Assembly: GCA_023246355.1 (NCBI GenBank)
Contig: JAHFIQ010000001.1
Location: 286,247 to 350,246 of the forward strand
Direction: 5' to 3'
DNA: 64,000 nucleotides
Source: Candidatus Uhrbacteria bacterium
Lineage (GTDB): Bacteria > Patescibacteriota > Patescibacteriia > UBA9934 > GWF2-40-263
Shown here: positions 17,271-49,610 of the stretch, in pieces
Numbering within the stretch: position 1 is the stretch's first letter
How the letters are laid out: every line of letters begins with the position of its first letter
Notes under the pieces: generated by a model
Database searches by the model: none
What the model was told of the DNA's origin: nothing
What the model saw: only the letters and a program-made list of their open reading frames with translations
Translations under genes and position numbers: made by a program

Positions 17271-18407
17271 TTATTGTTTAATTGGCATAATGACATACCG
17301 ATACACGTCTGTGGCGTCTTTGGGGGTGAGAAGACACGGGTTTCCCCCATCAATCATCTCAAAAACCACCTGATCTGCGTTCATGGCTTGAAGACCATCC
17401 AAGAGATATCGATAGTTTACGGTGACGGCATTTCGCTGTCCAGCAACTTCAGCTGAGCAGTTGGTTGTATTATCACCCCGGGTCGCATCTGTAGCGCTCA
17501 CACAGAGTTGATTTTCACTTGGATCAAACAGAAGTGTTACATCATTGAGACCTGAGCGCGAGAACAGACTGGCGGTTTTTACGGCCTTCACAAAATCTTC
17601 CCGATCCAAAACAGTATGAGTTTGGAACTGAGAAGGCACAATGGCTTTGTAATCAGGATACGATTCATCAATGGTACGAGAAATGAGTTCGACCGGGCCG
17701 TAGACAAAAACCAGTTGCGAATGAGAGAGATGCATGGTCAGACTTGATGGGAGCTCTACGTCATCTTTGAAGATAGAAAGGATTCGATTCACCTCTTGCA
17801 AGGTCTTTGACGGAACGACGATGGTGAATGGTTCAGCAACCTTGGAGATAAGCGGGATTGTTTTCTCCGCAAGTCGATAGGAATCTGTTGCCGCCAGAGT
17901 GAGACGCCCTTCTGTCTCGTTGGTGAAAAAGGAAAAAGCGACCCCTGTGAGCTCTGGGCGAGATTCGTTGGTTGCCACGGCAAAAAGGACTTCTGAAAGG
18001 CTTCGCTTGAAATCCTCCACAGGAATTTGGAATGTCTGTTCTCCCTCGACACGGGGAACCAGAGGGAATTCTGAGGCACCAAGCCCATGAATTTTCGTTT
18101 TATGCGTTCCGCATTCCACACGAACTTGCCCATCCTGTACGTCGATACGAATTGTTTCGTTTGGAAGTAACGAAACATAGTCGAAAAATAATTTTGATGG
18201 AATCGTATACTCCCCTGCCTCTTCTACTTTTCCACGAACCGTACAATTAACAGCCATCTCAAGATTCGTTGAGGTAAACCGAATGGTTCCTCCCTCTGCC
18301 TTTACTAAGACATTTTGGAGAATAGGGAGGTTTACATTCTTGGTCATCAGATGACTTGTAAGAGCAAGTCCTTGATGGAGGTTATCTCGTGTACAGGAGA
18401 GCTTCAT
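17271..18407 (-). CDS. dnaN: DNA polymerase III beta sliding clamp
   Basis: 378 aa, MKLSCTRDNLHQGLALTSHLMTKNVNLPILQNVLV..., three-domain clamp, immediately downstream of dnaA. Confidence 0.95.
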   Translation of the reverse strand: MKLSCTRDNLHQGLALTSHLMTKNVNLPILQNVLVKAEGGTIRFTSTNLEMAVNCTVRGKVEEAGEYTIPSKLFFDYVSLLPNETIRIDVQDGQVRVECGTHKTKIHGLGASEFPLVPRVEGEQTFQIPVEDFKRSLSEVLFAVATNESRPELTGVAFSFFTNETEGRLTLAATDSYRLAEKTIPLISKVAEPFTIVVPSKTLQEVNRILSIFKDDVELPSSLTMHLSHSQLVFVYGPVELISRTIDESYPDYKAIVPSQFQTHTVLDREDFVKAVKTASLFSRSGLNDVTLLFDPSENQLCVSATDATRGDNTTNCSAEVAGQRNAVTVNYRYLLDGLQAMNADQVVFEMIDGGNPCLLTPKDATDVYRYVIMPIKQ

Positions 18408-18650
18408 AATTAGAAATGGGATTTAAGAAGAAGAAAATCAGAAGTGATAGTAAGGGCTGTGCATGGCGGGGATAAGTTAAATTTCGTTTTTGTTTCTGCC
18501 TTGATTCTTACGATCGTTTTGTGGATGGATGAGAGGATGAACCAAGGAGAGGACAGGGGAAGAATTTTTAAAGAAGGTTCCATCAAGTTTCATCCACATG
18601 TTTTTGCAGACGGTTATGAACTCGTCATCCACCCGTTTACAAGCTGTGGA
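18408..18650. promoter_or_regulatory. probable oriC: DnaA-box cluster in the dnaA-dnaN spacer
   Basis: DnaA-box-like 9-mers are TTGTGGATG (18529-18537), TCATCCACA (18590-18598), TCATCCACC (18626-18634) and TGTGGATTA (18646-18654). An AT-richer stretch lies at 18408-18470. This is the classical dnaA-dnaN position. Confidence 0.5.
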
Positions 18651-20048
18651 TTAGAGCGCGTATAACTTCTGCTTAATCAGTTCCAAATCATGTTGAAGCT
18701 TTTCATCTTCGAGCAAACAGCCACTAATTTTATCGTAGGCATGCATGGCCGTGGTGTGGTCGCGACCACCCAACTCTGACCCAATGGATGGATAACTCGA
18801 CTTCATTTCCTCCCGCATGAGGTACATGACAATCTGGCGTGGGAATGCCAGACGCTTTTGGCGGCTTTTTCCAAGGAGATCATCAAGGTGGACATCAAAG
18901 TAAAGGGCAACCGTATGGATGAGCTGTTTTGGGGTAACGCTTTTGCGACTAGAGATGGGTTGGAAACTGGTGAGGATGGGTTTGACGGTTTCAATGGAAG
19001 GCTTGGCGTTCTTAAACTGATGAAAGGCGATGATTTTGTTGAGCGCACCCTCAAGCTCTCGGACATTTGTCTGTACGACCGTTGCGACATGATGGAGGAT
19101 TTCACGCTCAAGCTGGTAGGCTTTTTCTCGGCACTTGGTTTCCAAAATCGCCACGCGTGTTTCAAAGTCAGGGGAACCAACATCTGCCAACATGCCGCAT
19201 TCAAATCGAGAAATAAGGCGGTCTTCCAGACCTGAAATGGCTTTTGGCGGTCGGTCAGAGGAAAGGACGATCTGTCGATTGTTCTGGTGGAGTTGATTGA
19301 ACGTGTGGAAAAATTCTTCCTGGGTTTCTTCTTTTCCACCTAGAAATTGAATGTCGTCGATTAACAGAACGTCCACGGTGCGGTAACGATTTTTGAATTC
19401 GACCATCCGGTTTGAGCGTAGGGCGCCAATAAAATCGTTTGTAAAGCGCTCGCTGGTCACGTAAAGGATTTTGAGCTGTGGGTTCTTGCGCAAGAGCTCG
19501 TTTCCAATCGCTTGAAGCAGGTGGGTTTTGCCCAGTCCTACCCCACCGTAAATGTAGAGCGGGTTGTAGACGCCGCCCGGTTGGTTTGAGACGGCTTGAG
19601 AAGCAGCGTGAGCGAGTTCATTTTGTTTTCCAACAATGAATGTTTCGAAACAATACTTCCCGTTTAATGAAAATTCACCGGTACGCACTTCTTGTTGCGG
19701 TTGCGGTTGGTGAGCGGGTTGAAAGTGGGTGTGCATTTCAGGGGTTGGTGCGCGAGTGATCTCTTTTTCAAAAAGAGGGATGTCACGAGGGGTTGTTGGT
19801 CTGTTTTCGACACGGTAACTAAGCTGTTTGATCACTCCGTTGCTGTGTTCCTGCAAGGATCGCATAATTTCACGGGCGTATTTTTTTTCAAGCCAGGCTT
19901 TGGTGAACATGTTTGGGACACCAATGATAACCGCATGTGAATCGACTTCTGAAATAAAAGTGCTTTTAAACCAAGTAGTAAAGTTTGCTTTACTTAAGCC
20001 CAATTCGAGCTCACCTAGCACAGCTTGCCAAAGGTCATTGGTGTTCAT
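18651..20048 (-). CDS. dnaA: chromosomal replication initiator protein DnaA
   Basis: 465 aa. AAA+ Walker A GGVGLGKTHLL, sensor/box motifs, and a C-terminal DNA-binding domain (...DHTTAMHAYDKI). Confidence 0.95.
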   Translation of the reverse strand: MNTNDLWQAVLGELELGLSKANFTTWFKSTFISEVDSHAVIIGVPNMFTKAWLEKKYAREIMRSLQEHSNGVIKQLSYRVENRPTTPRDIPLFEKEITRAPTPEMHTHFQPAHQPQPQQEVRTGEFSLNGKYCFETFIVGKQNELAHAASQAVSNQPGGVYNPLYIYGGVGLGKTHLLQAIGNELLRKNPQLKILYVTSERFTNDFIGALRSNRMVEFKNRYRTVDVLLIDDIQFLGGKEETQEEFFHTFNQLHQNNRQIVLSSDRPPKAISGLEDRLISRFECGMLADVGSPDFETRVAILETKCREKAYQLEREILHHVATVVQTNVRELEGALNKIIAFHQFKNAKPSIETVKPILTSFQPISSRKSVTPKQLIHTVALYFDVHLDDLLGKSRQKRLAFPRQIVMYLMREEMKSSYPSIGSELGGRDHTTAMHAYDKISGCLLEDEKLQHDLELIKQKLYAL

Positions 20049-21183: not shown

Positions 21184-22473
21184 TTACTTTATCATGATTC
21201 CTCGCAGCAGCTCGATGACCTTGCGGTTTTTAAGGATCTGCTCCATGTAATCACGGTATTCAGGTGAGTAGACGCGTTCTTTTGTTTGCTTGTCTTCATG
21301 TTCTCCCGCGATCCGGTCGAGTTCTTCATCCAGTTCGCTGTCTTTGACCTCGATGTTTTCTTGTTTGGCGACCCCGCGGATGGCAATAGCCACCTTGATC
21401 CGCATCAGGGCTTGCGGAGTGAAATCAAGTTTTAATTCCGCAAGCGTCTTTTTCAAGTTCTTCACGTAGGTATCGAATTCGAGTCCTTGGGACTCAACCG
21501 AATGCTTGAGCTCGCCGATCATTTTATTGATTTCTTCATTTAAGAGTAGATCTGGAATTTCATCAAATTGAGATTTGTTTGCAAGAAGCTCAAGCATCTC
21601 TTTTTCTTCTTTGACGCGGGCCTCCTGTTGTTTTTCTGTGAGCAAATTCTTTTGAATCGCGGATTTCATCTCCTCAAACGTTTTCATGCCAAGTGACTGA
21701 GCAAATGTATCGTCCATGTTTGGAGGTTCAAGGCGGTACAACTCTTTTACGACCACATCAAATTCAACATCTTTTCCAGCCAAAAATTTTTGCGGATGCT
21801 CCGTTGGAAAAGGCAGGGTAAATGTTTTTTCCTCACCTTCTTTAAGTCCAATGAGTTCTTTTTTAAAGCCCGGGATGTAGTAATCTTCGGCTAAGTACAC
21901 CCCATGATTGGGTGACTGCCCACCTTCCACAGGAACGCCATCGCGCTTCATGTTCATGGAAATGACAACCTTGTCTTTGTCCCCTGCGACGTCTGTTTGG
22001 GGCGCACGGACTTCCTTGGTCTGCATGCGAGTCAGATCACGGATGGCAAGTTCAATTTCTTTTTCCGTGACTTCGGTTGTTTTTGCCGTGACAGAGAGTT
22101 TGTGAAAATCAGCGAGTGATTTAACCTCTGGCATGCGGGTGACAATCGCCGTGAAGACAATGTCATTTCCTGGTGCGAGCTTTTCTACGTCAATTTTTGG
22201 AGAACCAACCGTATCGAGATTTTGCGAGAGGATCGCGGCAACGTAAGACTTGCGCACCAGAGGCTCCAAGGCCTCTTCGAGGATTTTCATTTCCCCGACG
22301 CGCGCTTTCACAATTTCATACCCGGCATGACCAGGACGGAATCCGGCTATTTGCGTTTGTGTGGAAATGCGTTTGGCCGCTTCCTCAAGATACGGCCAGG
22401 CTTCTTCCTGAGTGATGGTGAACGTCAGTTTGATTTGGTTTTTTTCAAGCGACTCGGTTTTGATGTCAGGCAT
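21184..22473 (-). CDS. tig: trigger factor (ribosome-associated PPIase chaperone)
   Basis: 429 aa. N-terminal ribosome-binding region (GFRPGHAGYEIV is the GFRxGxxP signature), a central FKBP-like domain, and a C-terminal arm. Confidence 0.9.
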   Translation of the reverse strand: MPDIKTESLEKNQIKLTFTITQEEAWPYLEEAAKRISTQTQIAGFRPGHAGYEIVKARVGEMKILEEALEPLVRKSYVAAILSQNLDTVGSPKIDVEKLAPGNDIVFTAIVTRMPEVKSLADFHKLSVTAKTTEVTEKEIELAIRDLTRMQTKEVRAPQTDVAGDKDKVVISMNMKRDGVPVEGGQSPNHGVYLAEDYYIPGFKKELIGLKEGEEKTFTLPFPTEHPQKFLAGKDVEFDVVVKELYRLEPPNMDDTFAQSLGMKTFEEMKSAIQKNLLTEKQQEARVKEEKEMLELLANKSQFDEIPDLLLNEEINKMIGELKHSVESQGLEFDTYVKNLKKTLAELKLDFTPQALMRIKVAIAIRGVAKQENIEVKDSELDEELDRIAGEHEDKQTKERVYSPEYRDYMEQILKNRKVIELLRGIMIK

Positions 22474-22480
22474 AGGACAA

Positions 22481-22510
22481 GGTTTTAGGTTGTAGGGAGT
22501 AGGTTGTAGG
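22481..22510 (-). repeat. 30-nt purine-free (on mRNA) leader motif, copy 1: mRNA sense CCUACAACCUACUCCCUACAACCUAAAACC, 7 nt upstream of the tig AUG
   Basis: Plus strand GGTTTTAGGTTGTAGGGAGTAGGTTGTAGG. It contains the internal 11-mer direct repeat TAGGTTGTAGG twice. A second copy, identical except for one base, lies at 47394-47423. Confidence 0.6.
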
Positions 22511-22597
22511 TGAAAGCTTAAGAAAATCGTCAGGAGCTTAACGATTCAGATGAAAATTGTCAAAGGAAAATCCGAGCGAGTGGCTCGGATGCGTTGG

Positions 22598-23071
22598 CTA
22601 GTGGGCTTGGGCGTTCACGTGAGCTTCGCCGACTTCTCTTGCAATGTGGGCAGCGTAGGAAGCGACTTGTTGGCGCGAGGCGCCGAAGTGCTGCTGCAAG
22701 GCCGTAGAGATTTCATGCCAGTGAGGAGTCTTGGCAAGCCGGGGGTACCACTCATGGATGAACGCACGGCCTACCGTTTGGAAGGCGGTTCTGTCCATGG
22801 CGCTCACCTGAGCCTTGAGCTCGTTGAGCTGCGCTCTCTTGATCGAACGGCCTACCGGAAGCGGCACGACGCCTTTTCTGCGACGCGGTTTCGTTGTCAC
22901 CGCGTCTGCGGGCTCCGTGGTCGGCGCAGGGGATGCTTCAGCAGTTGACTGTGCGAGTTCGGAGATGATGGCTGTTTGCTCCGTTTCCAGAGCTTGAAGT
23001 CGAGCGATGAGACACACACGCTCTTGTCCGATGTTTTTCAGACGATCGAGCTGATCCTTTCGCGTAGGCAT
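22598..23071 (-). CDS. hypothetical protein (island gene 1; coiled-coil N-terminus, possible HTH C-terminus)
   Basis: 157 aa, no recognisable family. GC-rich codon usage. Confidence 0.5.
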   Translation of the reverse strand: MPTRKDQLDRLKNIGQERVCLIARLQALETEQTAIISELAQSTAEASPAPTTEPADAVTTKPRRRKGVVPLPVGRSIKRAQLNELKAQVSAMDRTAFQTVGRAFIHEWYPRLAKTPHWHEISTALQQHFGASRQQVASYAAHIAREVGEAHVNAQAH

Positions 23072-23088
23072 GGGGACTCCGTGAGTTC

Positions 23089-24123
23089 CTACCTTGGGAG
23101 GTAAGTTGAGACTCTGCCAGAGGGAGAGACAAATGTCAATGGACTGCGGCTGTAGAGCTGCCAGAGTTGTTCGGCGACCACGGTGATGGCGATAGGAGAA
23201 CTCAGTCTTCCCAAGGTGAGAATCCAGGTGGACATCCGATTGTTGCCGCCTGAGCGATAGAGCACTCGTTCAATCGTGAGCGGAAACAGTGGCGTCCGAC
23301 ATTCACTCAACAAGGGTCTGAGATGCGGTTCGTCAAAAAAACGGAACGATCTTTCTTTCGCAAGTGACTGGATGCGTGAAGCGGTCTGGTACATGTCTCC
23401 CAATATTTTTGAGAGATCACCATGGACAGCGACATCGAGTGCGCCGCTTCCCTCTGTCGGACTCGTGAAGAGGGTGAGGCCGATCAGCACCCGCCACAGG
23501 ATTCCGAAATCTCGACAGAACTGTGCGTGAGGAAGGACTTCTTCATGGGAGTTGCCGCGAAGGTAGGGACGCAGCTGATCGAACAGCCCATCAAGGCTTG
23601 TTCGCACACGTCCTTCCAAGATGGAATCAAAGGCGTTTGCAAACACGACTCCTGATTCGATGGATTCGGGATCCATTCCGGCAAAGGTGGTCATGCACAG
23701 GAGTCCTCCTCTGCTTCCCGGGAAGACACGGAAGAGTCGGATGATCTCGTCCGCGCAGGTATTCACCTGACCCTCGAAGTCAGCATTCGCGATCGAAAGT
23801 CTTGGTCCATCTGCGTGCGCGTGGTGATCGATCCACTGTGCCAGGGTTCCGTGGAAGATATGTCTGTCGCCAGACATTTTTTCGATGATCTTTTGGTGGC
23901 GTTCCACTGGATGAGTGATGACGCGGCGTTCAAGATAACGCGGACCTTCCAGATCCTGGACGCCTGGAAAGTAGACAACGTGTAGCGGTTCGCGATGTCT
24001 GCCTATGAGCATTCGGTCGATCGCGGCAAAATACCACGACCGAACCCAGTTCTTGGCTGGATTGTCGTAGTCTTGCACGAATCCTCCGATCCCAGTTGGG
24101 ACAGAGGATTTCATCAGAATCAT
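23089..24123 (-). CDS. hypothetical protein (island gene 2)
   Basis: 344 aa ORF in the GC-rich segment. No motif I can name; His-rich stretch HGTLAQWIDHHAHADG. Confidence 0.5.
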   Translation of the reverse strand: MILMKSSVPTGIGGFVQDYDNPAKNWVRSWYFAAIDRMLIGRHREPLHVVYFPGVQDLEGPRYLERRVITHPVERHQKIIEKMSGDRHIFHGTLAQWIDHHAHADGPRLSIANADFEGQVNTCADEIIRLFRVFPGSRGGLLCMTTFAGMDPESIESGVVFANAFDSILEGRVRTSLDGLFDQLRPYLRGNSHEEVLPHAQFCRDFGILWRVLIGLTLFTSPTEGSGALDVAVHGDLSKILGDMYQTASRIQSLAKERSFRFFDEPHLRPLLSECRTPLFPLTIERVLYRSGGNNRMSTWILTLGRLSSPIAITVVAEQLWQLYSRSPLTFVSPSGRVSTYLPR

Positions 24124-24223
24124 GATAGAAAGTCAATTGTCTGTGCTTGACAGAGATGGTATGTTGCCCTAGGGTAGTCGGTCTTGCACGCGGTCGTGTA
24201 AGAACAACTTCAGGGAGGTTTCC

Positions 24224-25834
24224 ATGGGCAGTCGCAACCGTCGATTGTTGGACAGGCTCGGAAGGCAGGACGCATCGTTCAAGCTGGGAGATGCGCTCCC
24301 GAAAGCTGTGAAGGAGCAACTCGGCGTTGATCCAAAGGCACCAACAGGAAAGGTAACGCCCCCATCTTTGACGGTAGGGCATGCCGCTCGAGTCCTTTCG
24401 ATCATCGAACAGGGCGATCCGCGCATGTTGGCAGCTCACTTGCTTTCAGGCGACGTTGCTGTACACGACATTCCACCTCGACTCATGCAAGCCGTGCTTG
24501 GCTGCGTGAGGCGGCATCACAAGGCTGTCACCGATCGCGACGACGAAACGATTCGGCAGCAGCGCGAAGCCCTGGAAGCACTCAACAGAGCAGCACGTGA
24601 ACGCGACGAGTCTCGTGCTTCGACTGAGTCTGACGTTGCTCGTCAGCGCCGTACAGCGCAGGAGATGGGACGTCAAGTGGGCGATCTTCATCGCGATCTC
24701 GAGCAAGCACGTCTGAAGATTGGAGAGTTGGAGCAATCGTTGCGCACATCGCAATCCGAAGCCTCTGATCTCAGAGCAGACCTCGCAGCTGCAAAAGAAG
24801 AACAGCTCGGCGACACCGAGGGCGCGATTTTCCGCCGCTTTCTGGATCTCGTGAATGTGCAGGTGGCACAGTGGCTCACGGATCGAGAAGGGCTCTTTCG
24901 AAAAGCGGAGTCTCTGTGCTCACGTTTGGAAGAGAGGGCTGGTCAGGCCGACGATCTGCTGTTGGAAGTGAAAGCGTGTGTGGAGGATGCCGAGGCCGCA
25001 CAGGTGGAGAGAGTCTTTGAGGGAGATGAGAGAGATTGGATCGCCTTCATCGACAAGGTTGAGCAGATGCGAAGGTTCCTGAGTGAACACTCCGCGATCA
25101 TCCAGGAAGTTCAGCGTCTGAGTCAGCAACGATCTGAATGTACTGATGCCTACGAAGGGCTCGATCGCAAAGGCAAGGAACTTACATTCCAGATTCACTC
25201 CGTGGTCGAGGCCTTTTCCTTGATCGGCGTGGACATCTTCGCTCGCGCAGGGTTGAATCCAGATCTGCTTGATTCCCTGGGAGCATCCGATCGGGTGGTG
25301 AAGCTCATGATGCAGGCGATCCCTGCTCAAGAGTTGTCAGAGGATTGGACACAGCGTATAGAAGCGCTCCAATCGCACATCTTGGTGGCCAAGCCAAAGA
25401 GGGCAGGCAAGAAAGAGCCTGCGCCCGAGCCCGCCCAAGTTCAGTTCTTTCCAGGCAGGATCTTCATGGTCGAGCCTGAACGCGAAGTGGAGAGGCTCGT
25501 GGGGATTCTTCTTCACGAGTTGCATGCGGCTGGATTTACCAACGCGTTGTTTCCAGGTGAGATCGCCTTGCTTCTCATGCGCTCAGGTCTCACAAACCTT
25601 GCGCGTGAGCCAATGACTAGTGAGGTGACGGTGGCTTGCCAAGCGCTCATTGGTCGGGGGCTCATCAGTCGTCATCCACGTTTTATGGAGGACGTCCAGA
25701 TCACAGGAAAGGCATTTGCTGCGCGTGATGTCTTCACGGCTCAGTACGCTCGAGTCGAGTTGGCTCAAGTGGGAGGTCGGCATGGAGAGAAACTGTGCGA
25801 GAAGTTGAGGAGGGTCATCCCAACCAAGGCGTAA
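24224..25834 (+). CDS. hypothetical coiled-coil protein (island gene 3)
   Basis: 536 aa, a long E/R/Q-rich predicted coiled-coil centre (residues about 100-330), no Walker motif. Confidence 0.5.
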   Translation: MGSRNRRLLDRLGRQDASFKLGDALPKAVKEQLGVDPKAPTGKVTPPSLTVGHAARVLSIIEQGDPRMLAAHLLSGDVAVHDIPPRLMQAVLGCVRRHHKAVTDRDDETIRQQREALEALNRAARERDESRASTESDVARQRRTAQEMGRQVGDLHRDLEQARLKIGELEQSLRTSQSEASDLRADLAAAKEEQLGDTEGAIFRRFLDLVNVQVAQWLTDREGLFRKAESLCSRLEERAGQADDLLLEVKACVEDAEAAQVERVFEGDERDWIAFIDKVEQMRRFLSEHSAIIQEVQRLSQQRSECTDAYEGLDRKGKELTFQIHSVVEAFSLIGVDIFARAGLNPDLLDSLGASDRVVKLMMQAIPAQELSEDWTQRIEALQSHILVAKPKRAGKKEPAPEPAQVQFFPGRIFMVEPEREVERLVGILLHELHAAGFTNALFPGEIALLLMRSGLTNLAREPMTSEVTVACQALIGRGLISRHPRFMEDVQITGKAFAARDVFTAQYARVELAQVGGRHGEKLCEKLRRVIPTKA

Positions 25835-25924
25835 TACGAGTGGAAGGGTCACGCACACCCTTCCTTTTATTTTTGTGTCAAAAAGAAAAGTCGTCGAGTT
25901 TTCGTCGACGACCGTGCGTTGTTT

Positions 25925-27955
25925 CTACGTCTGGTGGATGCGAGCCATGATGGTGTCGCGCTTGCGCAGCACATCCATCATGTTCACGGGAACGCGATTT
26001 CCTTCCTGCTTCGCGGCTCGCTCACACAGCATGATCGCCATGTGAGTGACCACCTCGTGATTGACCAGCAGGTCGAGCGACCCGGCTCGGTCTTTCTTGG
26101 CTGCCTGGGCTTCAGGTGCCGCGAAGTTGAACCAGATCGTGCACCTGGTGTCTCCAGCCGGGACAAACATCGCGAGTTTGGTGCGCTGATTTTTCTGCTC
26201 AGCAAACGGGAGAGACGTGATCGTGAAGGTGACACCGTCGACGACGAGCACCTTTTTCAAGACGGCCGTTCCAGGTCCGTCGCCGGTACGAGGCTTGGCC
26301 GTTCGCACGCTCAAGCGTGCTTCAGCTTTACTTCCGTCGCTGGCCTTGCACGTAATCGTGTAGTTGCCAGGTTCCATGGGCGCGGTGACTTCTGCACTGC
26401 GCGTGTCATCACTCATCCGGATTCGGCCTTTCTCCGTGGTCGTCCAAGTGAGGCCAGACTTGCCGTCGTCGTTGACCACACGCACTGTCCCGGTCTCACC
26501 TGGCTCCAGAACCAACTCACGCGGAGAGAGCGTGAAGGCGAGTTCCTGGTCGAGTCGGATTTCGCAGACAGCGCTTGGGGTGATCTCCTCCCCTTCAGAT
26601 GCGTGTCCAACGAGTTTCATCTTGTACCGGCGACCTTCTTCCTTCCCAGCCCGATAGGTGATCTGGGTGGGACCGGTGAGAGTCGCGGTCGCTTTTGCGC
26701 CCGAGAGCCACTTGTCATCCACCAGGATCGAGCCACCGGACTGCGTAGCATCGAGCTCGCAGATGTCTTCTGCCCCCGCGTTCAAGACCTGAAAGACGAA
26801 GGTTGTCCCGCATACGAGCGTTACTCGTGCCGGCTTGAATGCCAAGGCGGTCGTGGGCGTGCGAGGCGGCGGGACATTGACCTGCGTCGTCTCTCCCACC
26901 TTCTCGATGAGCCTCTGGACCACGCGCTCAATGACTTCGTCAGACGCACCTTCTACTTGCGTGTCCAGGCGAGCCCTACGGCGGATTTCCGGAAGCAGGG
27001 TGCTGTGCACGTGTTGGACCACAAGCTTGAAGCTCGGATCCTTGAATAGCAGGGGCTTGAAGAAGCGGCGGGTATGCTCTCCTTCGAAGTTTTTCCATGC
27101 ATGCACACGAATCATGAACCAGACGTTGGGGTGCAGGAGCTCTGGCGCCAGACCAGCCTCCAGACGCCCCAGTTGGTCCAAGAGTTCCGAGTGGCTGCAC
27201 ACATGCGCGCCCCAGGTTCCCCAGGAACGGTCCTGGTCTTTCACCTGGTCGTCGGCAAATCCGGCGATGATCTCCACTTGCCCCACACCCGGGACTTCAT
27301 CCTGGGCACGGTAGAACTCCCCTTTGGGAAAGTCGATGCGCGGCTTTTCGCCGTTGATCGTGATCATGTCCAGCTGCCAGGGCGAGAGGACACGTGCGAT
27401 GTTGCGCAGGACCTCGCCAGGCAGCACGCGGATGGCGGACTTGCCTTGCCAAGGTTTGGTGAGGCGAATCACCGTGCCGGTTCCCTTCACGCGGGCACCG
27501 GAGGTGGACTTGGGGATCTTGTTGGTCTTGATGCCGCCGCTTGCGCCCGTCTGCGAAGCTTTCCAAGCCTCGTCGTGGGAGTAGCTCAGGTGATGGCAAT
27601 CGGGGTCCTCCGACCAAGCCGTCCAGACATCCATGTGGTCAAAAGCGAGCCAGAGGGCCGTGTGACCTGTGCCGTTTTCCCCAATGGTTGAATCATCGCC
27701 TTGCTTGGACGATTCGGCCATGCCGATGAACTCAGGCCATACCTGCCGGCGCATGCCCATGCCATTGTCTTCGAACTGGAGGAATTCTCCATGCCGGTCG
27801 ATGGTGATGTCGATCTTGGTTGCTCGCGCATCCACGGCGTTCGTGATCCCTTGACCGACGATCCCTGAGGGAGTGATGGCCACACCCAGGCCCATCTTGC
27901 GAAACGATGAAGCGCCAAGTTTTCCACGGACAAGTTCGTTGGTGGCAGAAGCCAT
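25925..27955 (-). CDS. GHKL-superfamily ATPase (HATPase_c_3 / MORC-Hsp90-like N-terminal domain) with C-terminal Ig-like repeats (island gene 4)
   Basis: 676 aa. Bergerat-fold motifs: N-box ITNAVDARATKIDITID, G1 box FEDNGMGM, G2 box IGENGTGHTALW. The C-terminal 250 aa contain beta-rich repeats (GETGTVRVVNDDGKSGLTW...; GNYTITCKASDGSKAEARLSV). The long opposite-strand ORF is the usual high-GC artefact. Confidence 0.65.
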   Translation of the reverse strand: MASATNELVRGKLGASSFRKMGLGVAITPSGIVGQGITNAVDARATKIDITIDRHGEFLQFEDNGMGMRRQVWPEFIGMAESSKQGDDSTIGENGTGHTALWLAFDHMDVWTAWSEDPDCHHLSYSHDEAWKASQTGASGGIKTNKIPKSTSGARVKGTGTVIRLTKPWQGKSAIRVLPGEVLRNIARVLSPWQLDMITINGEKPRIDFPKGEFYRAQDEVPGVGQVEIIAGFADDQVKDQDRSWGTWGAHVCSHSELLDQLGRLEAGLAPELLHPNVWFMIRVHAWKNFEGEHTRRFFKPLLFKDPSFKLVVQHVHSTLLPEIRRRARLDTQVEGASDEVIERVVQRLIEKVGETTQVNVPPPRTPTTALAFKPARVTLVCGTTFVFQVLNAGAEDICELDATQSGGSILVDDKWLSGAKATATLTGPTQITYRAGKEEGRRYKMKLVGHASEGEEITPSAVCEIRLDQELAFTLSPRELVLEPGETGTVRVVNDDGKSGLTWTTTEKGRIRMSDDTRSAEVTAPMEPGNYTITCKASDGSKAEARLSVRTAKPRTGDGPGTAVLKKVLVVDGVTFTITSLPFAEQKNQRTKLAMFVPAGDTRCTIWFNFAAPEAQAAKKDRAGSLDLLVNHEVVTHMAIMLCERAAKQEGNRVPVNMMDVLRKRDTIMARIHQT

Positions 27956-28075
27956 GATGGCTGTCTCCTGTGAAGAGGTGATACCTCACAAGCGCGAAAT
28001 CGCTTATGAAGTTCCATCAGAGGTTGTCCTTTGACGACCACTGGTGGAATAGCGAGAGGAGCTCTCTCGCAGCCG

Positions 28076-29359
28076 TTAGGATTTGATGTCGTCCAGATCC
28101 CCTCCACCCAATCCTGTTGCCGTGACTCTCATGTCCAGGAACATGCTTGGCAAGTCTTCGTCTGCCACATCCATATGCCTGATGTGAATGGACATTTCAT
28201 CAAAGGCGTGACGCAGACGTCGCAGGACTGCCCGCTTGTCGTTATGTTCCATCGAGTTGATTTGCGCCAGACGCCTTGTGAGTTCACCGATGAGATTCGC
28301 AGTGTCATCAACCTCGTCGAGGCTGAACACAGCTTCACGTTTGAACGAAGCGGCCGTGAGCACAAACCGCATGCCGCTGACCACCTCACCCGGATCATCC
28401 GTCTTTCCTGCGGGTGGTGAAGAGCGTCGTGCACGAAGTTCCGCGATGATCCCTTCCAGTCCACGAGTGAGAATCTCTTCTATCGTGGAAGGTTCCTCAT
28501 TCGGTTTTTCGACTGGTTGTACGGGGGTTCGAATTCCTTGATGCGGCATCACCGTGGTAGTCACGGTCGCAGAAGTTCTCTCTGCGCTCAACCATTCGGG
28601 GAATGCGATTTGGATCGCACGCAGAAGGGTTTCGAACTTTTCACGCGAGGGTCGCTGGCCCTTTCGCCAGTCGATCAGGAGCGTTGCGCTGAAGACCTGT
28701 TCGCCAAGGCCGCCGTTGAGCTTCTTGGCAATGTGATCGACGCGTTCATGTGGGACCTGCTTGGTCATCCACGTTTTGAACGCGTTGTCGCCTACGAGCT
28801 CAGGGATGCGTTCACACCCTCGGCCGAAGACGTTCCACTGCCCTTCCATGTAGAAGAGGGTGTCGCTTCCCCAGGTTTGTCTTTCACCTCCACTGCGAGC
28901 GTCTTCTGTGCAGAAACGGATGATCGCCACGATGTTCTCGAAGCCCGGGAGACTCTTTGCATCTTTGTTACAGAACGAGTCAAGCTCGGTCCCATCAAAG
29001 AACATGCGAGAGAGTTGTTTGTCCCCGCCGATTCTCTCGATGTAGGGACGCAGCAGGCCAACAACGTCCTGCCGTGTTTTGACCTCTGGGAACCAGTCCC
29101 TTGTGGGGTCCACGGCCTTCTTGGCCATGTCCACCCACGTTGTTCCAACGTCGATGTCCACGGCAGTGAGCTTTCTTTGGATCCTTGGCGATTGGAGGGA
29201 GAACCGAACCTTTTTGCTCAGCTCGCCTTCCGCCTGGATCATGCTGTAGAGGTTGTCCAGTCCTGCAATTCGCAGGGCTGATGTGCGCTTGGGTTCCGGT
29301 TGCGCGGCTACCCAGGCTTCCAGTTGTTCGAGGACTGTACGTCCTTGGGGAGCAGGCAT
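28076..29359 (-). CDS. hypothetical protein (island gene 5), immediately downstream of and co-oriented with... divergent from gene 6
   Basis: I placed the start at MPAPQGRTVLEQLEAW, preceded by AAGGAGATCCA-ATG (good SD). 427 aa with no recognisable domain. The ORF-track N-terminal 75 aa extension lacks an SD and overlaps the divergent gene. Confidence 0.5.
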   Translation of the reverse strand: MPAPQGRTVLEQLEAWVAAQPEPKRTSALRIAGLDNLYSMIQAEGELSKKVRFSLQSPRIQRKLTAVDIDVGTTWVDMAKKAVDPTRDWFPEVKTRQDVVGLLRPYIERIGGDKQLSRMFFDGTELDSFCNKDAKSLPGFENIVAIIRFCTEDARSGGERQTWGSDTLFYMEGQWNVFGRGCERIPELVGDNAFKTWMTKQVPHERVDHIAKKLNGGLGEQVFSATLLIDWRKGQRPSREKFETLLRAIQIAFPEWLSAERTSATVTTTVMPHQGIRTPVQPVEKPNEEPSTIEEILTRGLEGIIAELRARRSSPPAGKTDDPGEVVSGMRFVLTAASFKREAVFSLDEVDDTANLIGELTRRLAQINSMEHNDKRAVLRRLRHAFDEMSIHIRHMDVADEDLPSMFLDMRVTATGLGGGDLDDIKS

Positions 29360-29521
29360 TGGATCTCCTTGGGTCTTTTTCCTCAGGTTTTGGTCTGAAT
29401 GAGGACAGGTCAGAGTAAAAGAAACAGTTCTGAATGTCAAGATTAGCCGCTTGACGGGATCACGGCAAGGTGATTCACTGTTCCCCTTGCGACGAGCAAG
29501 AAACCCCTTCAGGAGTCGAGC

Positions 29522-30694
29522 ATGTCTTCTCCCCCTTTGGCAGAGCCCGCGTCTGTTGATCCCGCCAAGCCCATTGATACCCACCCATGCTACTTCTGGT
29601 GCTGGGTCGAGGCTGTTCGACGATACTGGGATTCCAAGCGTGGATCCGATACGCCGTTGAATGCCAGGGTAGATTTCTACCCGATCATCTTTCGCTACTA
29701 CAAACCAAGGGTCGACACGAAGAAACCGAACCCTTCTGTCTATCTGTCGTACATGAAGAAGGCGGGGATGATTCGCAGGTTCGGAGCAGACGCTGGTGAC
29801 TCAGGTCGTGGAAGGGATACATTCTACGTTCCCGAGACAGAGATCACGCTGCGCGTTGGCGGGAAGGTGGTCTACACGCCAAGAGATCTTGATGCCCTGC
29901 TGGAGGGTGATGAGCGGTTCCAGCCTCCCAGTGAGGTGGTGGAGCCGGCATCTGAGGGCGAGCCGCCTGATGCTGATGCAGGTGACGATGGCGGCGGGGC
30001 AGCAGATGAGGCCGATCCTCCCGCGGCTGAGCCAGCGGTGAAGGAGAAAAAGCGTCGCAACAGGCAGAGGAGTCCGGAGCAGAATGCCTTGGTCGGCAAG
30101 CTTGTGAAAGTCCTGTGGGCAGCGGCAGAGCCAACGGACGATCCAGCCTGGCGCGTGATCGCGAAATCCGCGGCCAGAGACCATGCGGTGCGAGAGTGCG
30201 GACATGTTCTGCACTACACCACGCTCTTTCGACTCGGTTTCCTGAAGTCAGGGGCAGATCACGAAACGTGTCTCATCACGGATCCCAACGCAGGTTTCCG
30301 TGAGGCGCTGGCCGCTCCGAAGCGGGGACAGAATCCTGAACAGCCGGCGGAGACTTCCGTGTGTGGCTCTTCCAGTCTGTCCATCGAGCAGATCAGTGCC
30401 AGGATCACTGAACGCGAGGCAAGCTTCAGCACACAGGAGCTGGAAGATGAGCGCGCCGTCGTGCTGCGGGATGTCACGGCAAAACGTGCAGAGCTCGCCG
30501 CGATTGATGAGACACGTCTGCGTCTGCGTGAAGAGCTGCGAGGGCTTGAGACTTCTAGTGAGGCGCTGGCCGCCCAAATCGAGACTCGTATGATGCAGCG
30601 CCAGCAGGATCCCCTGCTTCTGGATCTGAATTGGGCGCGCGACAATTTCGAGCGACTCCAAAGGGTGCTGGCAGATTCTGTACCCAAGAGTTAA
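29522..30694 (+). CDS. hypothetical protein with acidic low-complexity linker and C-terminal coiled coil (island gene 6)
   Basis: 390 aa. The N-terminal about 110 aa form a basic/aromatic, possibly DNA-binding domain (PCYFWCWVEAVRRYWDSKRG...). D/E/G-rich linker, KKRRNRQR, and a coiled-coil C-terminus. Confidence 0.5.
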   Translation: MSSPPLAEPASVDPAKPIDTHPCYFWCWVEAVRRYWDSKRGSDTPLNARVDFYPIIFRYYKPRVDTKKPNPSVYLSYMKKAGMIRRFGADAGDSGRGRDTFYVPETEITLRVGGKVVYTPRDLDALLEGDERFQPPSEVVEPASEGEPPDADAGDDGGGAADEADPPAAEPAVKEKKRRNRQRSPEQNALVGKLVKVLWAAAEPTDDPAWRVIAKSAARDHAVRECGHVLHYTTLFRLGFLKSGADHETCLITDPNAGFREALAAPKRGQNPEQPAETSVCGSSSLSIEQISARITEREASFSTQELEDERAVVLRDVTAKRAELAAIDETRLRLREELRGLETSSEALAAQIETRMMQRQQDPLLLDLNWARDNFERLQRVLADSVPKS

Positions 30695-30738
30695 GACACG
30701 ACCCGTTCGCTCTCTGCGACCGGGTTTTCAAATTCAAA

Positions 30739-30767
30739 ACACCCCAGCAGACCGGGGTGTTTTTTTG
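30739..30767. terminator. bidirectional rho-independent terminator (ACACCCC-agcagac-CGGGGTGT + T7) between island gene 6 and hppA
   Basis: 8 bp G/C stem with TTTTTTT downstream on plus. On the minus strand the stem is followed by TTTTGAATTT. Confidence 0.75.
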
Positions 30768-30768
30768 T

Positions 30769-32745
30769 TTAGACGATCAAGGCAACGATGAGCAGAGCGA
30801 CGATGTTCAAAATTTTGATCATCGGGTTTAGGGCTGGGCCGGCAGTGTCTTTGTACGGGTCGCCCACCGTGTCGCCTGTGACAGCGGCTTTGTGTGCATT
30901 GCTTCCCTTGCCGCCGAAGTGACCAGCTTCAATATATTTTTTGGCATTGTCCCAGGCGCCGCCGCCAGTGGTCATCGAGATGGCGACGAACAGTCCGGTG
31001 ATAATGGAACCGATGAGCAAACCGCCCAAGGCTTCAGCTCCCAGTCCAAATCCTACAACGATCGGTGCAAGCACGGCCAAGAGGGACGGGGCGATCATGT
31101 ACTTGATCGCACGAGTCGTGACGATGTCGACAGCCTTGCCGTACTCAGGTTTGCCTGTGCCATCCATGATGCCTGGAATTTCACGAAACTGTCGTCGGAC
31201 TTCTTCTACGACTGCGCCAGCGGCTTTTCCAACCGCCTCCATGGCCATAGCGCCGAACAAATAGCTCACAAGTCCTCCCAAGAAAAGGCCCGCGATTACA
31301 TGTGGATCAACCAAGTTGAAAATGATGTGCGTGCCAGTGGCTTCGATCGTGTGAACGTAGTCGCCAAACAGTACGAGTGTGGCAAGTCCTGCTGAACCAA
31401 TGGCGTAGGCCTTCGTCACAGCTTTTGTGGTGTTGCCAACCGCGTCCAGGGGATCGGTAATGGCGCGGACTTCCTCTGGCAGGTCGGCCATTTCAGCAAT
31501 GCCTCCTGCGTTGTCGGTGATCGGACCATAGGCATCGATGGCGACAATGATTCCGGTGAGCGACAACATTGCCACAGCCGCAATCGCAATGCCGTAGAGA
31601 CCAGCAAGGTTGTAGGCGATGAGGATTCCAAGGACAATGGTGAGAACAGGCAGAGCTGTGGCTTTCATGGAAAGCGCAATGCCTGCGATGATGTTGGTCC
31701 CGTGACCGGACTGTGAAGCCTCAGCGAGTTTTTGCACGGGTTTGTATTCCGTGGCTGTGTAGTATTCGGTGATCATGATGAGGAGCGCTGTGATGACGAG
31801 TCCAAGCACGCCACAGAAGAAGAGTTCCTGGCTGTTCTCAAACATGAAAAGATTTGTCACAAACCAGAAGCCAATGCCTGCAAAGATTCCTGCGGCGGCG
31901 AGGCCTTTGTAGAGCGCACCCATGATGTTTTTTGTGGTGCCAAGTTTGATGAAGAAGGTTCCCAGAATAGACGCAATGATGGCGACGGCACCAAGGGCAA
32001 GTGGATACAAGACAAGACCTTCGTCACTCGAGAGAAGACTTCCCAAGACCATGGTGGCCACCAGGGTCACTGCGTATGTTTCAAAAAGATCAGCGGCCAT
32101 GCCAGCGCAGTCGCCGACGTTGTCGCCGACGTTATCCGCAATCACGGCTGGGTTGCGTGGATCGTCTTCGGGAATATTGGCTTCTGTTTTTCCAACGAGG
32201 TCTGCACCGACATCAGCAGCCTTTGTGAAGATACCCCCGCCAAGTCGCGCGAATACAGAGATCAGTGAGCCACCAAATCCAAGTCCAATGAGGGCACCCA
32301 CGTCTTGGGTTACAAAGAAAAATCCAGCAACACCCAACAGCGCAAGTCCCACCACAAGAAGTCCTGTGACCGTTCCGCCTTTGACCGCGACGTCCAGTGC
32401 TTCAGCCAGTCCTTTTTTTGCTGCCTCGGTGGTACGGACATTCGCACGCACAGAAACGCTCATGCCGACAAATCCAGCCACGCCAGAGAGAACAGCTCCT
32501 ACGAGAAATCCAACGGCGAGCGTCCAATCGAGCACGAGGCCCAGCAGGACAAAAATAATCACGCCAATCACGGCGATCACTTTGTACTGACGAGCGAGAT
32601 AGGCGTTTGCCCCTTCTTGAATAGCAAGGGCAATGCCTTTCATTTTTCCTTCCCCGGCAGGCTGCTTCAAAATCCATTGAGTCAGAACAGCTCCCCAGAG
32701 AATCGCGAGAATTCCGGCCGCGATGGCGTAGAGTATAATGGGCAT
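30769..32745 (-). CDS. hppA: membrane-bound proton/sodium-translocating pyrophosphatase
   Basis: 658 aa, about 16 TM. Conserved H+-PPase motifs GGG(I/L)[24 protein letters not shown] and [13 protein letters not shown]. Confidence 0.95.
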
Positions 32746-35053: not shown

Positions 35054-35539
35054 TCAGGGCTGGCAAGCGAGAGCGGAACAGCCTTCTCCCTCCGGGTCGG
35101 ACCAGCTGCTGACGTCCCAGGTCTCACCCGACCAGTTGAGGTAGGTCTCTGTGATGAGATCGGCGTTGTACGACGTGTTGTCGTTGCCTTCGCACAGGTA
35201 GCGGCCATCCCGGTAGTTCACGTTCCACCGGATACACTCGATGTTGTCAACCACGACGTTGTAGCCATGGTCATCGAGTGTGTCCTGGAGATCTTCGGGA
35301 GTGGTATTGAGCTGAACCACGTCGGGGCAGTCGAGCGTGAGGTGCCAGCCGAGCTGACCGACCTGGTCTTCTCGTTCCGAGAACTCGACGGTGAGGCTTG
35401 CGCTCTGGTCGCGATCCTCGGCAACCAGCAGGATCCACTCATCAGTGCAGTCTGCACAATCGTTGCCGTTGTCATCGCCTTCGTCGGTTTGAAATCCGAC
35501 ACAGCCTGTCATCGTGACCGAAATCAGCATGAACCGCAT
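35054..35539 (-). CDS. hypothetical acidic lipoprotein
   Basis: 161 aa. Signal peptide MRFMLISVTMTGC has a lipobox-like TMTGC. D/E-rich, multiple Cys. Confidence 0.5.
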   Translation of the reverse strand: MRFMLISVTMTGCVGFQTDEGDDNGNDCADCTDEWILLVAEDRDQSASLTVEFSEREDQVGQLGWHLTLDCPDVVQLNTTPEDLQDTLDDHGYNVVVDNIECIRWNVNYRDGRYLCEGNDNTSYNADLITETYLNWSGETWDVSSWSDPEGEGCSALACQP

Positions 35540-35803: not shown

Positions 35804-36253
35804 TCAAACCAAGAAAACATTCACCCACTTGGTTAACCCAAGTTCTTCAACCAAAGACTGCATCAATTCACTTACATCGTTCTTCGTTGTCCAGACACTT
35901 CGTTGTGCCATCGTAAATCCAGCTTTTTTCAAAAAGTTTCTCAGTTTGTTTCGAAGATGTCTTACGTCCTCAGGGATATCAAAACTCACGATGGTCGTGC
36001 GACCGTCAGGATGCTCCCGTTTCACTAACAGGATTTTCTCCCGAGTGAGTCTTGCCTGTCCTTTGCTGCTTAGTTTCAGTTCTGCGCCATAGCTGGTTTC
36101 ATAAATATCAGAACACCCCTCTTCCAAGAGTTGAATTTGGCGTTTGAGTTGTTCTACATACGCTGTTCGTCTCCAGCTATCAGGTGCAACTTGGTTGAAA
36201 TGTCGCTGAGCATTGTGGAGCTTTTTTGTTGTCGGAATATGCATGTTATCCAT
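35804..36253 (-). CDS. hypothetical protein, translationally coupled to comM; C-terminal half has a Cas2/VapD-like beta-alpha-beta pattern (weak)
   Basis: 149 aa. TIVSFDIPEDVRHLRNKLRNFLKKAGFTMAQRSVWT resembles the Cas2 core (v.sYDv...rrrkl.k.L..yG.rvQ.SVf). Overlaps the comM stop by 8 nt. No CRISPR array anywhere in the window. Confidence 0.35.
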   Translation of the reverse strand: MDNMHIPTTKKLHNAQRHFNQVAPDSWRRTAYVEQLKRQIQLLEEGCSDIYETSYGAELKLSSKGQARLTREKILLVKREHPDGRTTIVSFDIPEDVRHLRNKLRNFLKKAGFTMAQRSVWTTKNDVSELMQSLVEELGLTKWVNVFLV

Positions 36254-47386: not shown

Positions 47387-47393
47387 AAAAAAA

Positions 47394-47423
47394 GGTTTTA
47401 GGTTGTAGGGAGTAGGTGGTAGG
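47394..47423 (-). repeat. 30-nt leader motif, copy 2 (29/30 identical to 22481-22510), 7 nt upstream of the DsbA-like start
   Basis: Plus strand GGTTTTAGGTTGTAGGGAGTAGGTGGTAGG. Confidence 0.6.
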
Positions 47424-48798: not shown

Positions 48799-48843
48799 CG
48801 TCAGCCTTGAGCTATCTTGACCGCGCCCTTTGTGGAGGTTTCC

Positions 48844-49530: not shown

Positions 49531-49555
49531 GAAACAGTCCTACACGCATTTGACG

Positions 49556-49584: not shown

Positions 49585-49610
49585 CCGTCATTTCGTTATG
49601 ATGACGCAAC

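Follow-up and report, generated by a model that had tools for sequence, protein, structure and literature searches.

A compositionally foreign GHKL-ATPase cassette in a cargo-turnover hotspot between hppA and tig of Candidatus Uhrbacteria

GHKL-S5 ATPases of the MORC and paraMORC1-5 groups are parts of restriction-modification-like systems (Iyer, Abhiman & Aravind, 2008, PMC2292703), and the paraMORC gene neighborhood includes a superfamily-II helicase, a DNA methylase and a Vsr/RE-fold endonuclease (PMC2292703). A GHKL-fused Shedu nuclease (type I-D, VcSduA) protects against phage, and dimeric clamp models have been proposed for it; VcSduA needs its catalytic Glu, the residue replaced in an E27A variant designed to disrupt ATP hydrolysis (PMC12137116). 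Conserved core genes can flank hotspots of defense or other cargo; one example is the pheT-flanked hotspot of Pseudomonas aeruginosa, in which MADS is found (bioRxiv 10.1101/2023.03.30.534895). The subject of this report is a block of six genes, g1-g6, situated between tig and hppA in a chromosome of Candidatus Uhrbacteria (Patescibacteria, or candidate phyla radiation, CPR). It lies within a 64,000-nucleotide stretch of contig JAHFIQ010000001.1, which was analyzed at its full length and is called the window below. The genome is present in groundwater samples such as ERZ27280176 and SRR14366766. It is firmly established that the block is a self-contained, compositionally foreign accessory cassette, conserved as a unit, which resides in a hotspot of cargo turnover and is one of a rare family whose core is g5-g4. 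The cassette seems to be horizontally exchangeable and is most likely a DNA-directed conflict or defense system of the MORC/paraMORC type, a reading to which a probability of approximately one half is assigned.

Pfam confirms tig (21184-22473, reverse strand), hppA for H+-pyrophosphatase (30769-32745, reverse strand) and dnaA (18651-20048), and the local order dnaN-dnaA-rnpA-yidD-tig is origin-proximal. The interval between tig and hppA holds an 8.1-kb block of six genes (22598-30694):

22598-23071, reverse strand: g1, 157 aa, basic (isoelectric point 9.9), predicted to be co-transcribed with g2
23089-24078, reverse strand: g2, 329 aa, GTG start, predicted class-I (Rossmann) methyltransferase-like fold
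24224-25834, forward strand: g3, 536 aa, long central coiled coil
25925-27955, reverse strand: g4, 676-aa GHL-type ATPase
28076-29359, reverse strand: g5, 427 aa, 5' of g4 and predicted to be co-transcribed with it
29522-30694, forward strand: g6, 390 aa, acidic, divergent from g5-g4

The G+C content (GC), measured in 1-kb segments, rises from 0.45-0.46 (20.0-22.5 kb) to 0.53-0.61 (22.0-31.0 kb) and declines to approximately 0.49-0.51 by 32.5 kb. Individually, g1-g6 have a GC of 0.540-0.598 and a GC at third codon positions (GC3) of 0.585-0.718, versus 0.503±0.041 and 0.520±0.073 for the remaining 52 open reading frames (ORFs) of at least 100 aa in the window; GC3 is 0.63 in the block and 0.52 elsewhere, and g4 alone reaches 0.72. 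These values, with which the sliding profiles concur, bear out an earlier note on this DNA, which had estimated high-50s to 60% GC against approximately 50% in the flanks. Tetranucleotide distance over a sliding 8-kb interval is maximal at 23001-31000 (0.268; window mean 0.151±0.037; z≈3), making 22.6-30.7 kb the most compositionally deviant 8 kb within the window. The same note had claimed a GC contrast with both neighbors. On the tig side it is a sharp step, but at the right edge it is weak, because hppA itself has a GC of 0.54. The island proteins are also richer in Arg (8.7 versus 5.8%), Ala and Pro. Among the six, g4 alone reached a family cutoff (Pfam HATPase_c_3, 38.5 bits versus a cutoff of 25); PADLOC, NCBIfam and PHROGs searches of all six proteins gave no significant match, and no transmembrane segment or hydrophobic stretch of membrane-spanning length was detected in any of them. 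The content announced earlier, a GHKL ATPase together with a 536-aa coiled-coil protein, is thus present, the composition profile is not flat and the genes are not housekeeping genes shared by all relatives.

Occupancy of the site was surveyed in 27 Uhrbacteria tig loci, to which the window proteins were mapped with tblastn and profiles; loci are identified below by L numbers. Whether tig and hppA adjoin elsewhere, a point raised in the earlier note, is answered by six related species in which hppA lies directly beside tig, with a gap of at most ~190 nt (L013, L015, L019, L026, L028, L029). The remaining species carry 1-9 kb of cargo. The same cassette occupies the site in L005 and L066, and also in L064/L065, whose contigs end before tig, while a rearranged second cassette type with homologues of g2, g5 and g4 occupies it in L016 and L076, and further GHKL variants do so in L008, L012, L017, L020, L021 and L022. 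Elsewhere the cargo consists of a DndB/DpdB-like protein of ~350 aa with two small partners (L006, L007, L009, L018) or of unrelated genes (HEAT-repeat and MopE-repeat proteins in L010; also L011). Species whose tig is 65-76% identical to that of the window carry entirely different cargo. Because hppA and tig are adjacent in six species and are separated by different cargo in others, the hppA-tig site is an insertion hotspot with cargo turnover. Of the features by which genomic islands are recognized, atypical composition and an empty site in relatives were found, and integration machinery (integrase, flanking direct repeats, tRNA target) was not.

The DndB/DpdB-like cargo probably represents another uncharacterized DNA-modification system. 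In L006 (2291-9852), a SNF2-helicase/methyltransferase fusion of ~1040-1060 aa, with a weak PADLOC mad2 match, accompanies the DndB/DpdB-like gene. A homologue of this fusion adjoins the GHKL cassette in L074 (14363-19894), two genes from the GHKL gene. Approximately 5 kb beyond hppA, a 146-aa PaaX_M-like protein with a weak Cas2 match is encoded downstream of an Mg-chelatase-like gene (window 35804-36253 region; L001:1712-2152), and the corresponding place in L064 holds a Gp49 (HigB-like)/HTH_XRE toxin-antitoxin pair, which suggests a second small variable spot. Several of the metagenome-assembled genomes surveyed that have Uhrbacteria-like tig, dnaA and hppA (among L004, L010, L016-L018, L020, L024 and L026) are titled 'uncultured Gammaproteobacteria bacterium', probably through automatic mislabelling.

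The six genes had been described as ORFans, a claim that does not survive comparison: their order is conserved in at least five other Uhrbacteria lineages, and the cassette is part of a wider GHKL-cassette family. The arrangement termed type A (g6← →g5 g4 ←g3 →g2 g1) is kept in the same orientation in L066, L072, L068, L069 and L064/L065 and partially in L005; in L072 it is flanked by hppA and, at the opposite end, by a MazE/PIN toxin-antitoxin pair. Each cassette protein has only ~9-11 relatives in 5.8 billion protein clusters. Identities to L066 are 41, 56, 35, 59, 42 and 33% for g1 through g6 versus 69% for tig, 80% for dnaA, 88% for hppA and 74% for the cupin gene, values that indicate a cassette diverging faster than its flanking genes. 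GHKL proteins of different cassette types at this site are only 15-20% identical.

An exhaustive hidden Markov model (HMM) search with the g4 alignment recovered 174 representatives at E<=1e-3, 36 of them at E<=1e-10, among 1.84 billion proteins; most family members are 630-720 aa long and match end to end. A metagenome scan with the same alignment yielded one locus only, which was already known. In every family locus with upstream DNA present, a g5-family gene lies immediately 5' of the GHKL gene in the same orientation, and the contexts checked beyond tig include rseP / hisS-mreB (L071), secDF (L073), trpS (L074) and a 1.37-Mb contig with SLH-domain proteins (L075). Judged by gene order, the invariant core of the family is g5 followed by g4. 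Homologues of g2 accompany this pair despite altered order in L016, L021, L071 and L076, and divergent g6-like genes occur in L016 and L017, with a weaker case in L021 (hhalign probability of 90 from g6 to the L016/L017 divergent genes and 56 to that of L021); hhalign detected no other signal among most partner-gene clusters of different cassette types. GHKL ORFs of 1015-1107 aa in L020-L022 were dismissed as spurious N-terminal extensions that overlap the g5-like ORF in another frame.

The composition of distant family members points to movement of the core. In L075 (7790-12040), a three-gene block comprising a 289-aa ORF, a g5-like gene (269 aa) and a GHKL gene (679 aa) has a GC of 0.51-0.60 within a neighborhood of 0.31-0.37, a striking sign that the core cassette would have entered a distant host of low GC recently. 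In L074, the GHKL pair and the SNF2-methyltransferase belong to a block exceeding 12 kb with a GC of 0.61-0.64 versus 0.47-0.50, and in most Uhrbacteria loci the GHKL genes have a higher GC than the core genes next to them. Scans of IMG/VR with g4 and g2 found no relatives, and tblastn with g4 against INPHARED phages and PLSDB plasmids gave no match. Because no integrase is present, homologous recombination in the conserved flanks is the likely route of spread.

The g4 protein consists of a Bergerat (GHKL) fold with a transducer (residues ~1-360), two Ig-like domains (~370-550) and a conserved C-terminal domain of the alpha/beta type that bears an N..(H/A)P motif (~568-676). Its ATP-binding motifs, which define the GHKL superfamily, are intact (N39, D42, D63xGxG67, G92xxGxG97 with G95 included, T159GT161), and N39, D42, G65, G67, G92 and G160 are 100% conserved in 49 family members; an alpha/beta transducer of the ribosomal-S5 fold follows directly, as in the GHL class. 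In GHKL proteins the general-base Glu sits four residues before the motif-I Asn (E29 in MutL, E33 in Hsp90). The corresponding residue of g4 is Q35, and position 35 across the 49 members is Q in 35 (71%), E in 13 and H in one; by analogy, Gln at the general base predicts that g4 binds ATP and dimerizes but hydrolyzes ATP slowly or not at all. SMCHD1, MORC2 and TopoVI-B are among the closest folds, and the structural matches also comprise Hsp90/TRAP1/HtpG. Sequence similarity to MORC2 is weak (E 2.5e-5) and restricted to the N-terminal ~100 residues, and NCBIfam MutL models score ~20 bits, far under their cutoffs of 180-840.

Compared with the described systems, g4 resembles paraMORC proteins in having an N-terminal GHKL domain with conserved ATP motifs, an S5-like transducer and a family-specific C-terminal extension. 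The cassettes are likewise sporadic, laterally mobile and multigenic, and are able to include methyltransferases, with a SNF2 helicase-methyltransferase beside the L074 member. In contrast to the paraMORC neighborhood, the window cassette has no linked superfamily-II helicase or recognizable endonuclease; the partners of g4 are helix-turn-helix (HTH)-like and coiled-coil proteins, and g4 carries two Ig-like domains after the transducer and, in most family members, Gln for the catalytic Glu. Unlike the MutL N-terminal domain, TopoVI-B or SMCHD1, g4 is found without a MutL C-terminal endonuclease or dimerization domain and without a Toprim or TopoVI-A partner, and its context is that of neither mismatch repair nor a topoisomerase. 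Shedu type I-D, and Mza (MzaB) and Tiamat (TmtA) as represented in PADLOC, are similar in that a GHKL ATPase is the regulatory or sensing module of those defense systems. However, g4 has no fused DUF4263 or PD-(D/E)xK nuclease, its family mostly has Gln where VcSduA has Glu, and it has no PADLOC match; the distant GHKL protein of L008 matches TmtA and MzaB only at E~2e-3, over the ATP-binding motif. As with the MADS hotspot, the boundary genes hppA and tig are conserved and the cargo is variable and often DNA-modification-related, no integrase is needed, and the pattern is compatible with homologous recombination in the flanks. It differs in that turnover is seen across species of an uncultured CPR class, not among strains of one species, and in that most of the cargo is unannotatable. 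The cassette falls within the known theme of GHKL-based conflict systems, while its architecture, GHKL-transducer-Ig-Ig-C-terminal domain in which Gln takes the catalytic position, plus an obligatory HTH-like partner and coiled-coil or winged-HTH-like accessory genes, appears to be undescribed in the libraries and papers searched.

The g5 protein appears to contain one or two degenerate Cro/C1-type HTH-like segments and has a conserved C-terminal helical domain of ~110 aa (GE..G.RF.LT...F...), which is conserved in all members of the family alignment; the alignment also shows a W..G..PS.e.l pattern. A possible HTH protein had been noted among the cargo. Sub-threshold HTH_3, HTH_26, HTH_31, YdaS or P22_Cro matches (E 2e-4 to 0.09) were obtained for 7/10 relatives of g5, mostly at equivalent N-terminal or central positions; g5 itself has no Pfam or PDB match.

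The g2 model has a Rossmann-like methyltransferase fold, at a mean predicted local distance difference test score (pLDDT) of 54, and its closest fold is that of the class-I S-adenosylmethionine (SAM)-dependent, Trm1-like methyltransferases. Conserved motifs are YDxPxKNxVR, lYlPGxxNlExPxY, vER and AN(A/L)DFEG. Beyond the alpha/beta core, the likeness extends to an acidic residue that ends strand 2 (vER) and to a conserved N-x-D-F-x-G loop after strand 4, the position at which amino-methyltransferases carry (D/N)PP(F/Y) and Trm1 carries DPFG. Unlike those enzymes, g2 has neither a Gly-rich motif I nor a Pfam or NCBIfam methyltransferase match, and it may be catalytically inactive. PDB sequence-profile searches with g2, g5 and g6 returned nothing meaningful, and for g6 gave coiled-coil noise only.

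The other partners are mainly coiled-coil proteins. In g1, which has no family match in Pfam, PADLOC, NCBIfam or PHROGs, an N-terminal coiled-coil-like segment and a Pro/Thr/Ala-rich linker precede a C-terminal helical domain, and its orthologues adjoin g2 in L005, L066 and L072. The g3 protein contains an invariant FFPGxIFxVEPEREVERL block and a C-terminal globular domain, winged-helix-like by inspection only; orthologues occur in L005, L064, L066, L068 and L072. An alignment of g3 was made with its L064 and L066 orthologues. Its database matches are sub-threshold and of the coiled-coil type only (SMC, LmuB, JetC, GAS). Assignment of g3 to SMC, Wadjet or Lamassu was rejected, as the LmuB, JetC and SMC matches cover the coiled coil only, an ATPase head is lacking and inspection revealed no Walker motif. 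In g6, a conserved N-terminal domain of ~135 aa, winged-helix-like by inspection, is followed by a variable acidic/basic linker, in which a second small domain is located, and by a C-terminal coiled coil; family members are found in L017, L064, L066, L068, L069 and L072.

The cassette is bounded and subdivided by the following signals:

22570-22590, reverse strand: intrinsic-terminator-like hairpin (8-bp stem, five GC pairs, T-run) that would end the g2-g1 unit, between g1 and the tig promoter/leader
24108-24175, both strands: putative divergent promoter region of g2 and g3, back-to-back -35 boxes
24131-24136 and 24108-24113, reverse strand: putative g2 promoter elements, -35 TTGACT and -10-like TGAAAT, 17 nt apart
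24147-24152 and 24170-24175, forward strand: putative g3 promoter elements, -35 TTGACA and -10-like TAGGGT, 17 nt apart
25842-25864 (forward strand, ending g3) and 25889-25913 (reverse strand, ending g5-g4): two convergent terminator-like hairpins
29412-29479, both strands: putative divergent promoter region of g5 and g6
29435-29440 and 29412-29417, reverse strand: putative g5 promoter elements, -35 TTGACA, 17-nt spacer, -10 TACTCT
29451-29456 and 29471-29479, forward strand: putative g6 promoter elements, -35 TTGACG, then TGnTTCACT
29486-29500, forward strand: inverted repeat CTTGC-N5-GCAAG in the g6 leader, between promoter and Shine-Dalgarno (SD) sequence
30736-30763, both strands: bidirectional terminator-like hairpin common to g6 (forward) and hppA (reverse), 10-bp stem with AAAA and TTTTTTT flanks, right edge of the cassette

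The GTCAAG...TTGAC arrangement between g2 and g3 is kept in 4/4 orthologous loci compared, and GTCAAG-N-CTTGAC between g5 and g6 in 6/6, each of which also has TTGACA-17 nt-TAnnnT for g5. On the strength of the terminator-like hairpins and the conserved divergent -35 boxes, the cassette is read as four autonomous transcription units, g2-g1, g3, g5-g4 and g6. The CTTGC...GCAAG repeat of the g6 leader, found in 5/6 orthologous loci with a variable loop of 4-9 nt, may be an RNA hairpin or an autoregulatory operator. The g5 start is placed at 29359 (427 aa, AAGGAG SD) and not at 29584, and therefore g5 does not overlap g6; g2 starts at the GTG at 24078 (329 aa). Both revised starts match independent gene calls on identical contigs from other samples as well as AGGAG-type ribosome-binding sites. 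The self-contained accessory module proposed in the earlier note is supported by these conserved signals and by a site that is empty in six relatives, and the strong bidirectional terminator that it placed at the right border was found, with A- and T-tracts on the two sides.

The left border that it drew at 22481-22510, by contrast, proved to be part of the tig 5' leader. This G-poor leader of ~31 nt, CCTAC(A/C)ACCTACTCCCTACAACCTAAAACCTT, lies at 22480-22510 on the reverse strand, 8-37 nt 5' of the tig ATG, and occurs again at 47393-47423 on the reverse strand, before a DsbA-like thioredoxin gene (46598-47386); the motif is neither a border of the island nor an attachment site. Tandem repeats of a related, pyrimidine-rich kind (CTACC..., TTAGCC...) are found before tig in L004, L066, L011 and L013. 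The leader shared by tig and the DsbA-like gene may be a translational enhancer or a regulatory leader and is unrelated to the island. No flanking direct repeats longer than expected by chance were found at the island, Pfam found no integrase domain among the window genes, and no tRNA lies at the borders, the nearest being ~19 kb away on either side (3778-3852 and 49611-49685). The classic integrative-element model was rejected on the lack of such repeats and of a tRNA within ~19 kb. Checks with Pfam and PHROGs and for repeats and tRNAs were all negative, in agreement with the earlier statement that integrase and phage structural genes are absent.

Two further observations concern the surroundings of the island. 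Additional GC-rich genes without a Pfam match are present in the window at 48.8-53.7 kb and at 35054-35539; the island is therefore the largest such tract and not the sole one. Because several of these genes are also family-less, high GC in this Uhrbacteria genome seems to mark lineage-specific DNA generally. The tract at 48817-53733 (GC 0.56-0.63), among tRNA-Arg (49611-49685) and tRNA-His (50942-51016), has the second-highest tetranucleotide deviation in the window (0.213) and may be a further accessory island; one of its ORFs (52558-53733, GC1 0.90) is an apparent out-of-frame artifact. To the left, dnaN and dnaA (17271-20048) lie ~2.5 kb from the island edge and GC skew becomes positive at ~17 kb, for which reasons the window probably spans the replication origin.

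A DNA-directed conflict or defense function is suggested by the ATPase class, the patchy and mobile distribution, the fast divergence and the turnover of partner genes, together with the methyltransferase-fold partner, the DNA-modification-type cargo and toxin-antitoxin pair at or beside the site, and the GHKL precedents. All six proteins are free of transmembrane segments, which fits an intracellular, nucleic-acid-directed role. In such a system, g5 and the coiled-coil/winged-helix-like g3, g6 and g1 would provide DNA binding, specificity or scaffolding, and g4, dimerized via its C-terminal domain, would close its N-terminal clamp on bound DNA in an ATP-dependent manner. With Gln in place of the general-base Glu, g4 would stay clamped with ATP bound for a long time and would act as a switch or clamp and not as a motor. 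The g2 protein might mark self nucleic acid, or sense SAM or modification. As no nuclease is recognizable, invading DNA would be sequestered or silenced, or an effector encoded elsewhere would be recruited.

Several observations weigh against this interpretation. In PADLOC (v2.0.0, E<=0.1), g2, g4, g5 and g6 have no match, while g3 has coiled-coil matches only (LmuB 6.7e-5, JetC) and g1 a hit of 0.0044 to CARF-TM that is regarded as noise. No nuclease, helicase, protease, TIR/SIR2 or other effector domain is recognizable in g1-g6, and therefore no killing or cleavage step can be assigned. The methyltransferase assignment of g2 is of low confidence because of the pLDDT of 54, and the loop after strand 1, lYlPGxxNlE, contains a single Gly in place of a Gly-rich motif I. 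Both AlphaFold2 models are mediocre (pLDDT 63 and 54, the latter for g2), and the HTH and winged-helix assignments of g3, g5 and g6 are sub-threshold or made by inspection. The presence of type A at the same locus in several species with similar GC excess is compatible with old vertical inheritance and loss, the borders contain no integrase, att repeat or tRNA, and a location beside oriC and tig might point to a function in the cell other than defense. As to co-localization with defense genes, none is recognized in the window flanks, a MazE/PIN pair adjoins the cassette in L072, and DpdB/DndB-like and mad2-like SNF2-methyltransferase genes occupy the site in L006, L007, L009 and L018. Of the earlier suggestion of "possibly a defense island", the accessory module stands, whereas defense is suggested by context alone (hotspot turnover, DpdB/DndB-like and SNF2-methyltransferase cargo, MazE/PIN), and the Pfam and PADLOC searches that it had recommended for the six proteins recovered the GHKL domain of g4 but no defense-system match.

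The location 3-12 kb from dnaA-dnaN in Uhrbacteria raises the alternative of a lineage-specific module for chromosome organization or DNA transactions, in which a MORC/SMCHD1/TopoVI-B-like clamp with coiled-coil and HTH partners compacts or organizes the origin-proximal chromosome or regulates replication or segregation. The nearest folds (SMCHD1, MORC2, TopoVI-B) act on chromosome structure, and the partners are coiled-coil or HTH-like, with no enzymatic effectors and no effector nuclease. This explanation is nevertheless considered unlikely, since the cassette is missing from many Uhrbacteria in which hppA abuts tig, unrelated cargo occupies the same site elsewhere, sequence divergence is extreme and partner genes turn over, members in L071, L073, L074 and L075 are far from oriC-type contexts, and compositional signs of recent transfer are strong. 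Those same signs, namely the GC and tetranucleotide anomaly, the insertion between core genes that are adjacent in relatives and the clear patchy transfer into a 35% GC genome, would also suit the cargo or remnant of an integrated mobile element, such as a cryptic plasmid- or virus-like element of CPR bacteria, whose genes serve its own maintenance (partition, regulation, anti-defense) and not host defense; the cassette's own putative promoters and terminators and its putative Cro/C1-type regulators agree with this, and CPR mobile elements are so poorly catalogued that absence from databases is weak evidence. However, neither this locus nor ~20 related loci contain an integrase, recombinase, replication, capsid, terminase or conjugation gene, flanking direct repeats and tRNAs are lacking, and no relative of g4 or g2 was found in IMG/VR, nor of g4 in INPHARED or PLSDB, which renders a mobile-element origin improbable.

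Two other explanations carry far less weight. In seven loci (L008, L012, L016, L020, L021, L022, L076) the GHKL gene lies directly 5' of tig and co-oriented with it, and Hsp90/TRAP1/HtpG are among the structural matches, as would be expected if g4 were a divergent Hsp90/HtpG-like chaperone working with trigger factor, and its partners co-chaperones. Yet g4 of the window is set apart from tig by three genes and is followed by a terminator of its own, tig is not near in L071, L073, L074 and L075, the partners are DNA-binding in appearance, and 15-20% identity is too low for a housekeeping chaperone where tig is 57-70% identical to that of the window; such a proteostasis module is thus very improbable. 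Little credence is likewise given to the view that the block is no island, its genes being native and owing their high GC to Arg/Ala/Pro-rich amino-acid composition or low expression. The enrichment in these residues, the synteny of the cassette in several species with equal GC excess and the GC richness of other Pfam-less window genes are in its favor, but GC3, a measure that depends little on the amino acids encoded, is elevated as well, six relatives have an empty site, and the L075 GHKL block has a GC of 0.57 in surroundings of 0.31-0.37. All of these rivals (chromatin module, mobile-element cargo, chaperone and native gene set) are less consistent with the presence/absence pattern, diversity of contexts and composition than is a conflict system.

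A more specific form of the conflict or defense function, offered tentatively and held to be more doubtful than not, is an as yet undescribed, Patescibacteria-centered immune or xenogeneic-silencing system without a nuclease. As an HTH adaptor, g5 would load g4, a hydrolysis-impaired clamp with its Ig-like domains as sensors, onto foreign or unmarked DNA, g2 would provide the self mark, and g1, g3 and g6 would bridge clamps into a compacting scaffold, in a bacterial counterpart of eukaryotic MORC-type epigenetic silencing.

Bacteria of the candidate phyla radiation have tiny genomes, and few recognized defense systems have been described in them. That an 8-kb cassette is kept in genomes of ~1 Mb and exchanged at a fixed hotspot implies strong selection. 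If the cassette acts in defense or silencing, it would employ a GHKL-clamp mechanism without an obvious nuclease and could serve in prokaryotes to model how DNA is compacted and genes are silenced in the MORC manner; if it organizes the origin-proximal chromosome instead, it would represent a new type of bacterial chromatin protein. Because nearly all of its cargo is unannotated, the hppA-tig hotspot can also be mined for new Uhrbacteria systems.

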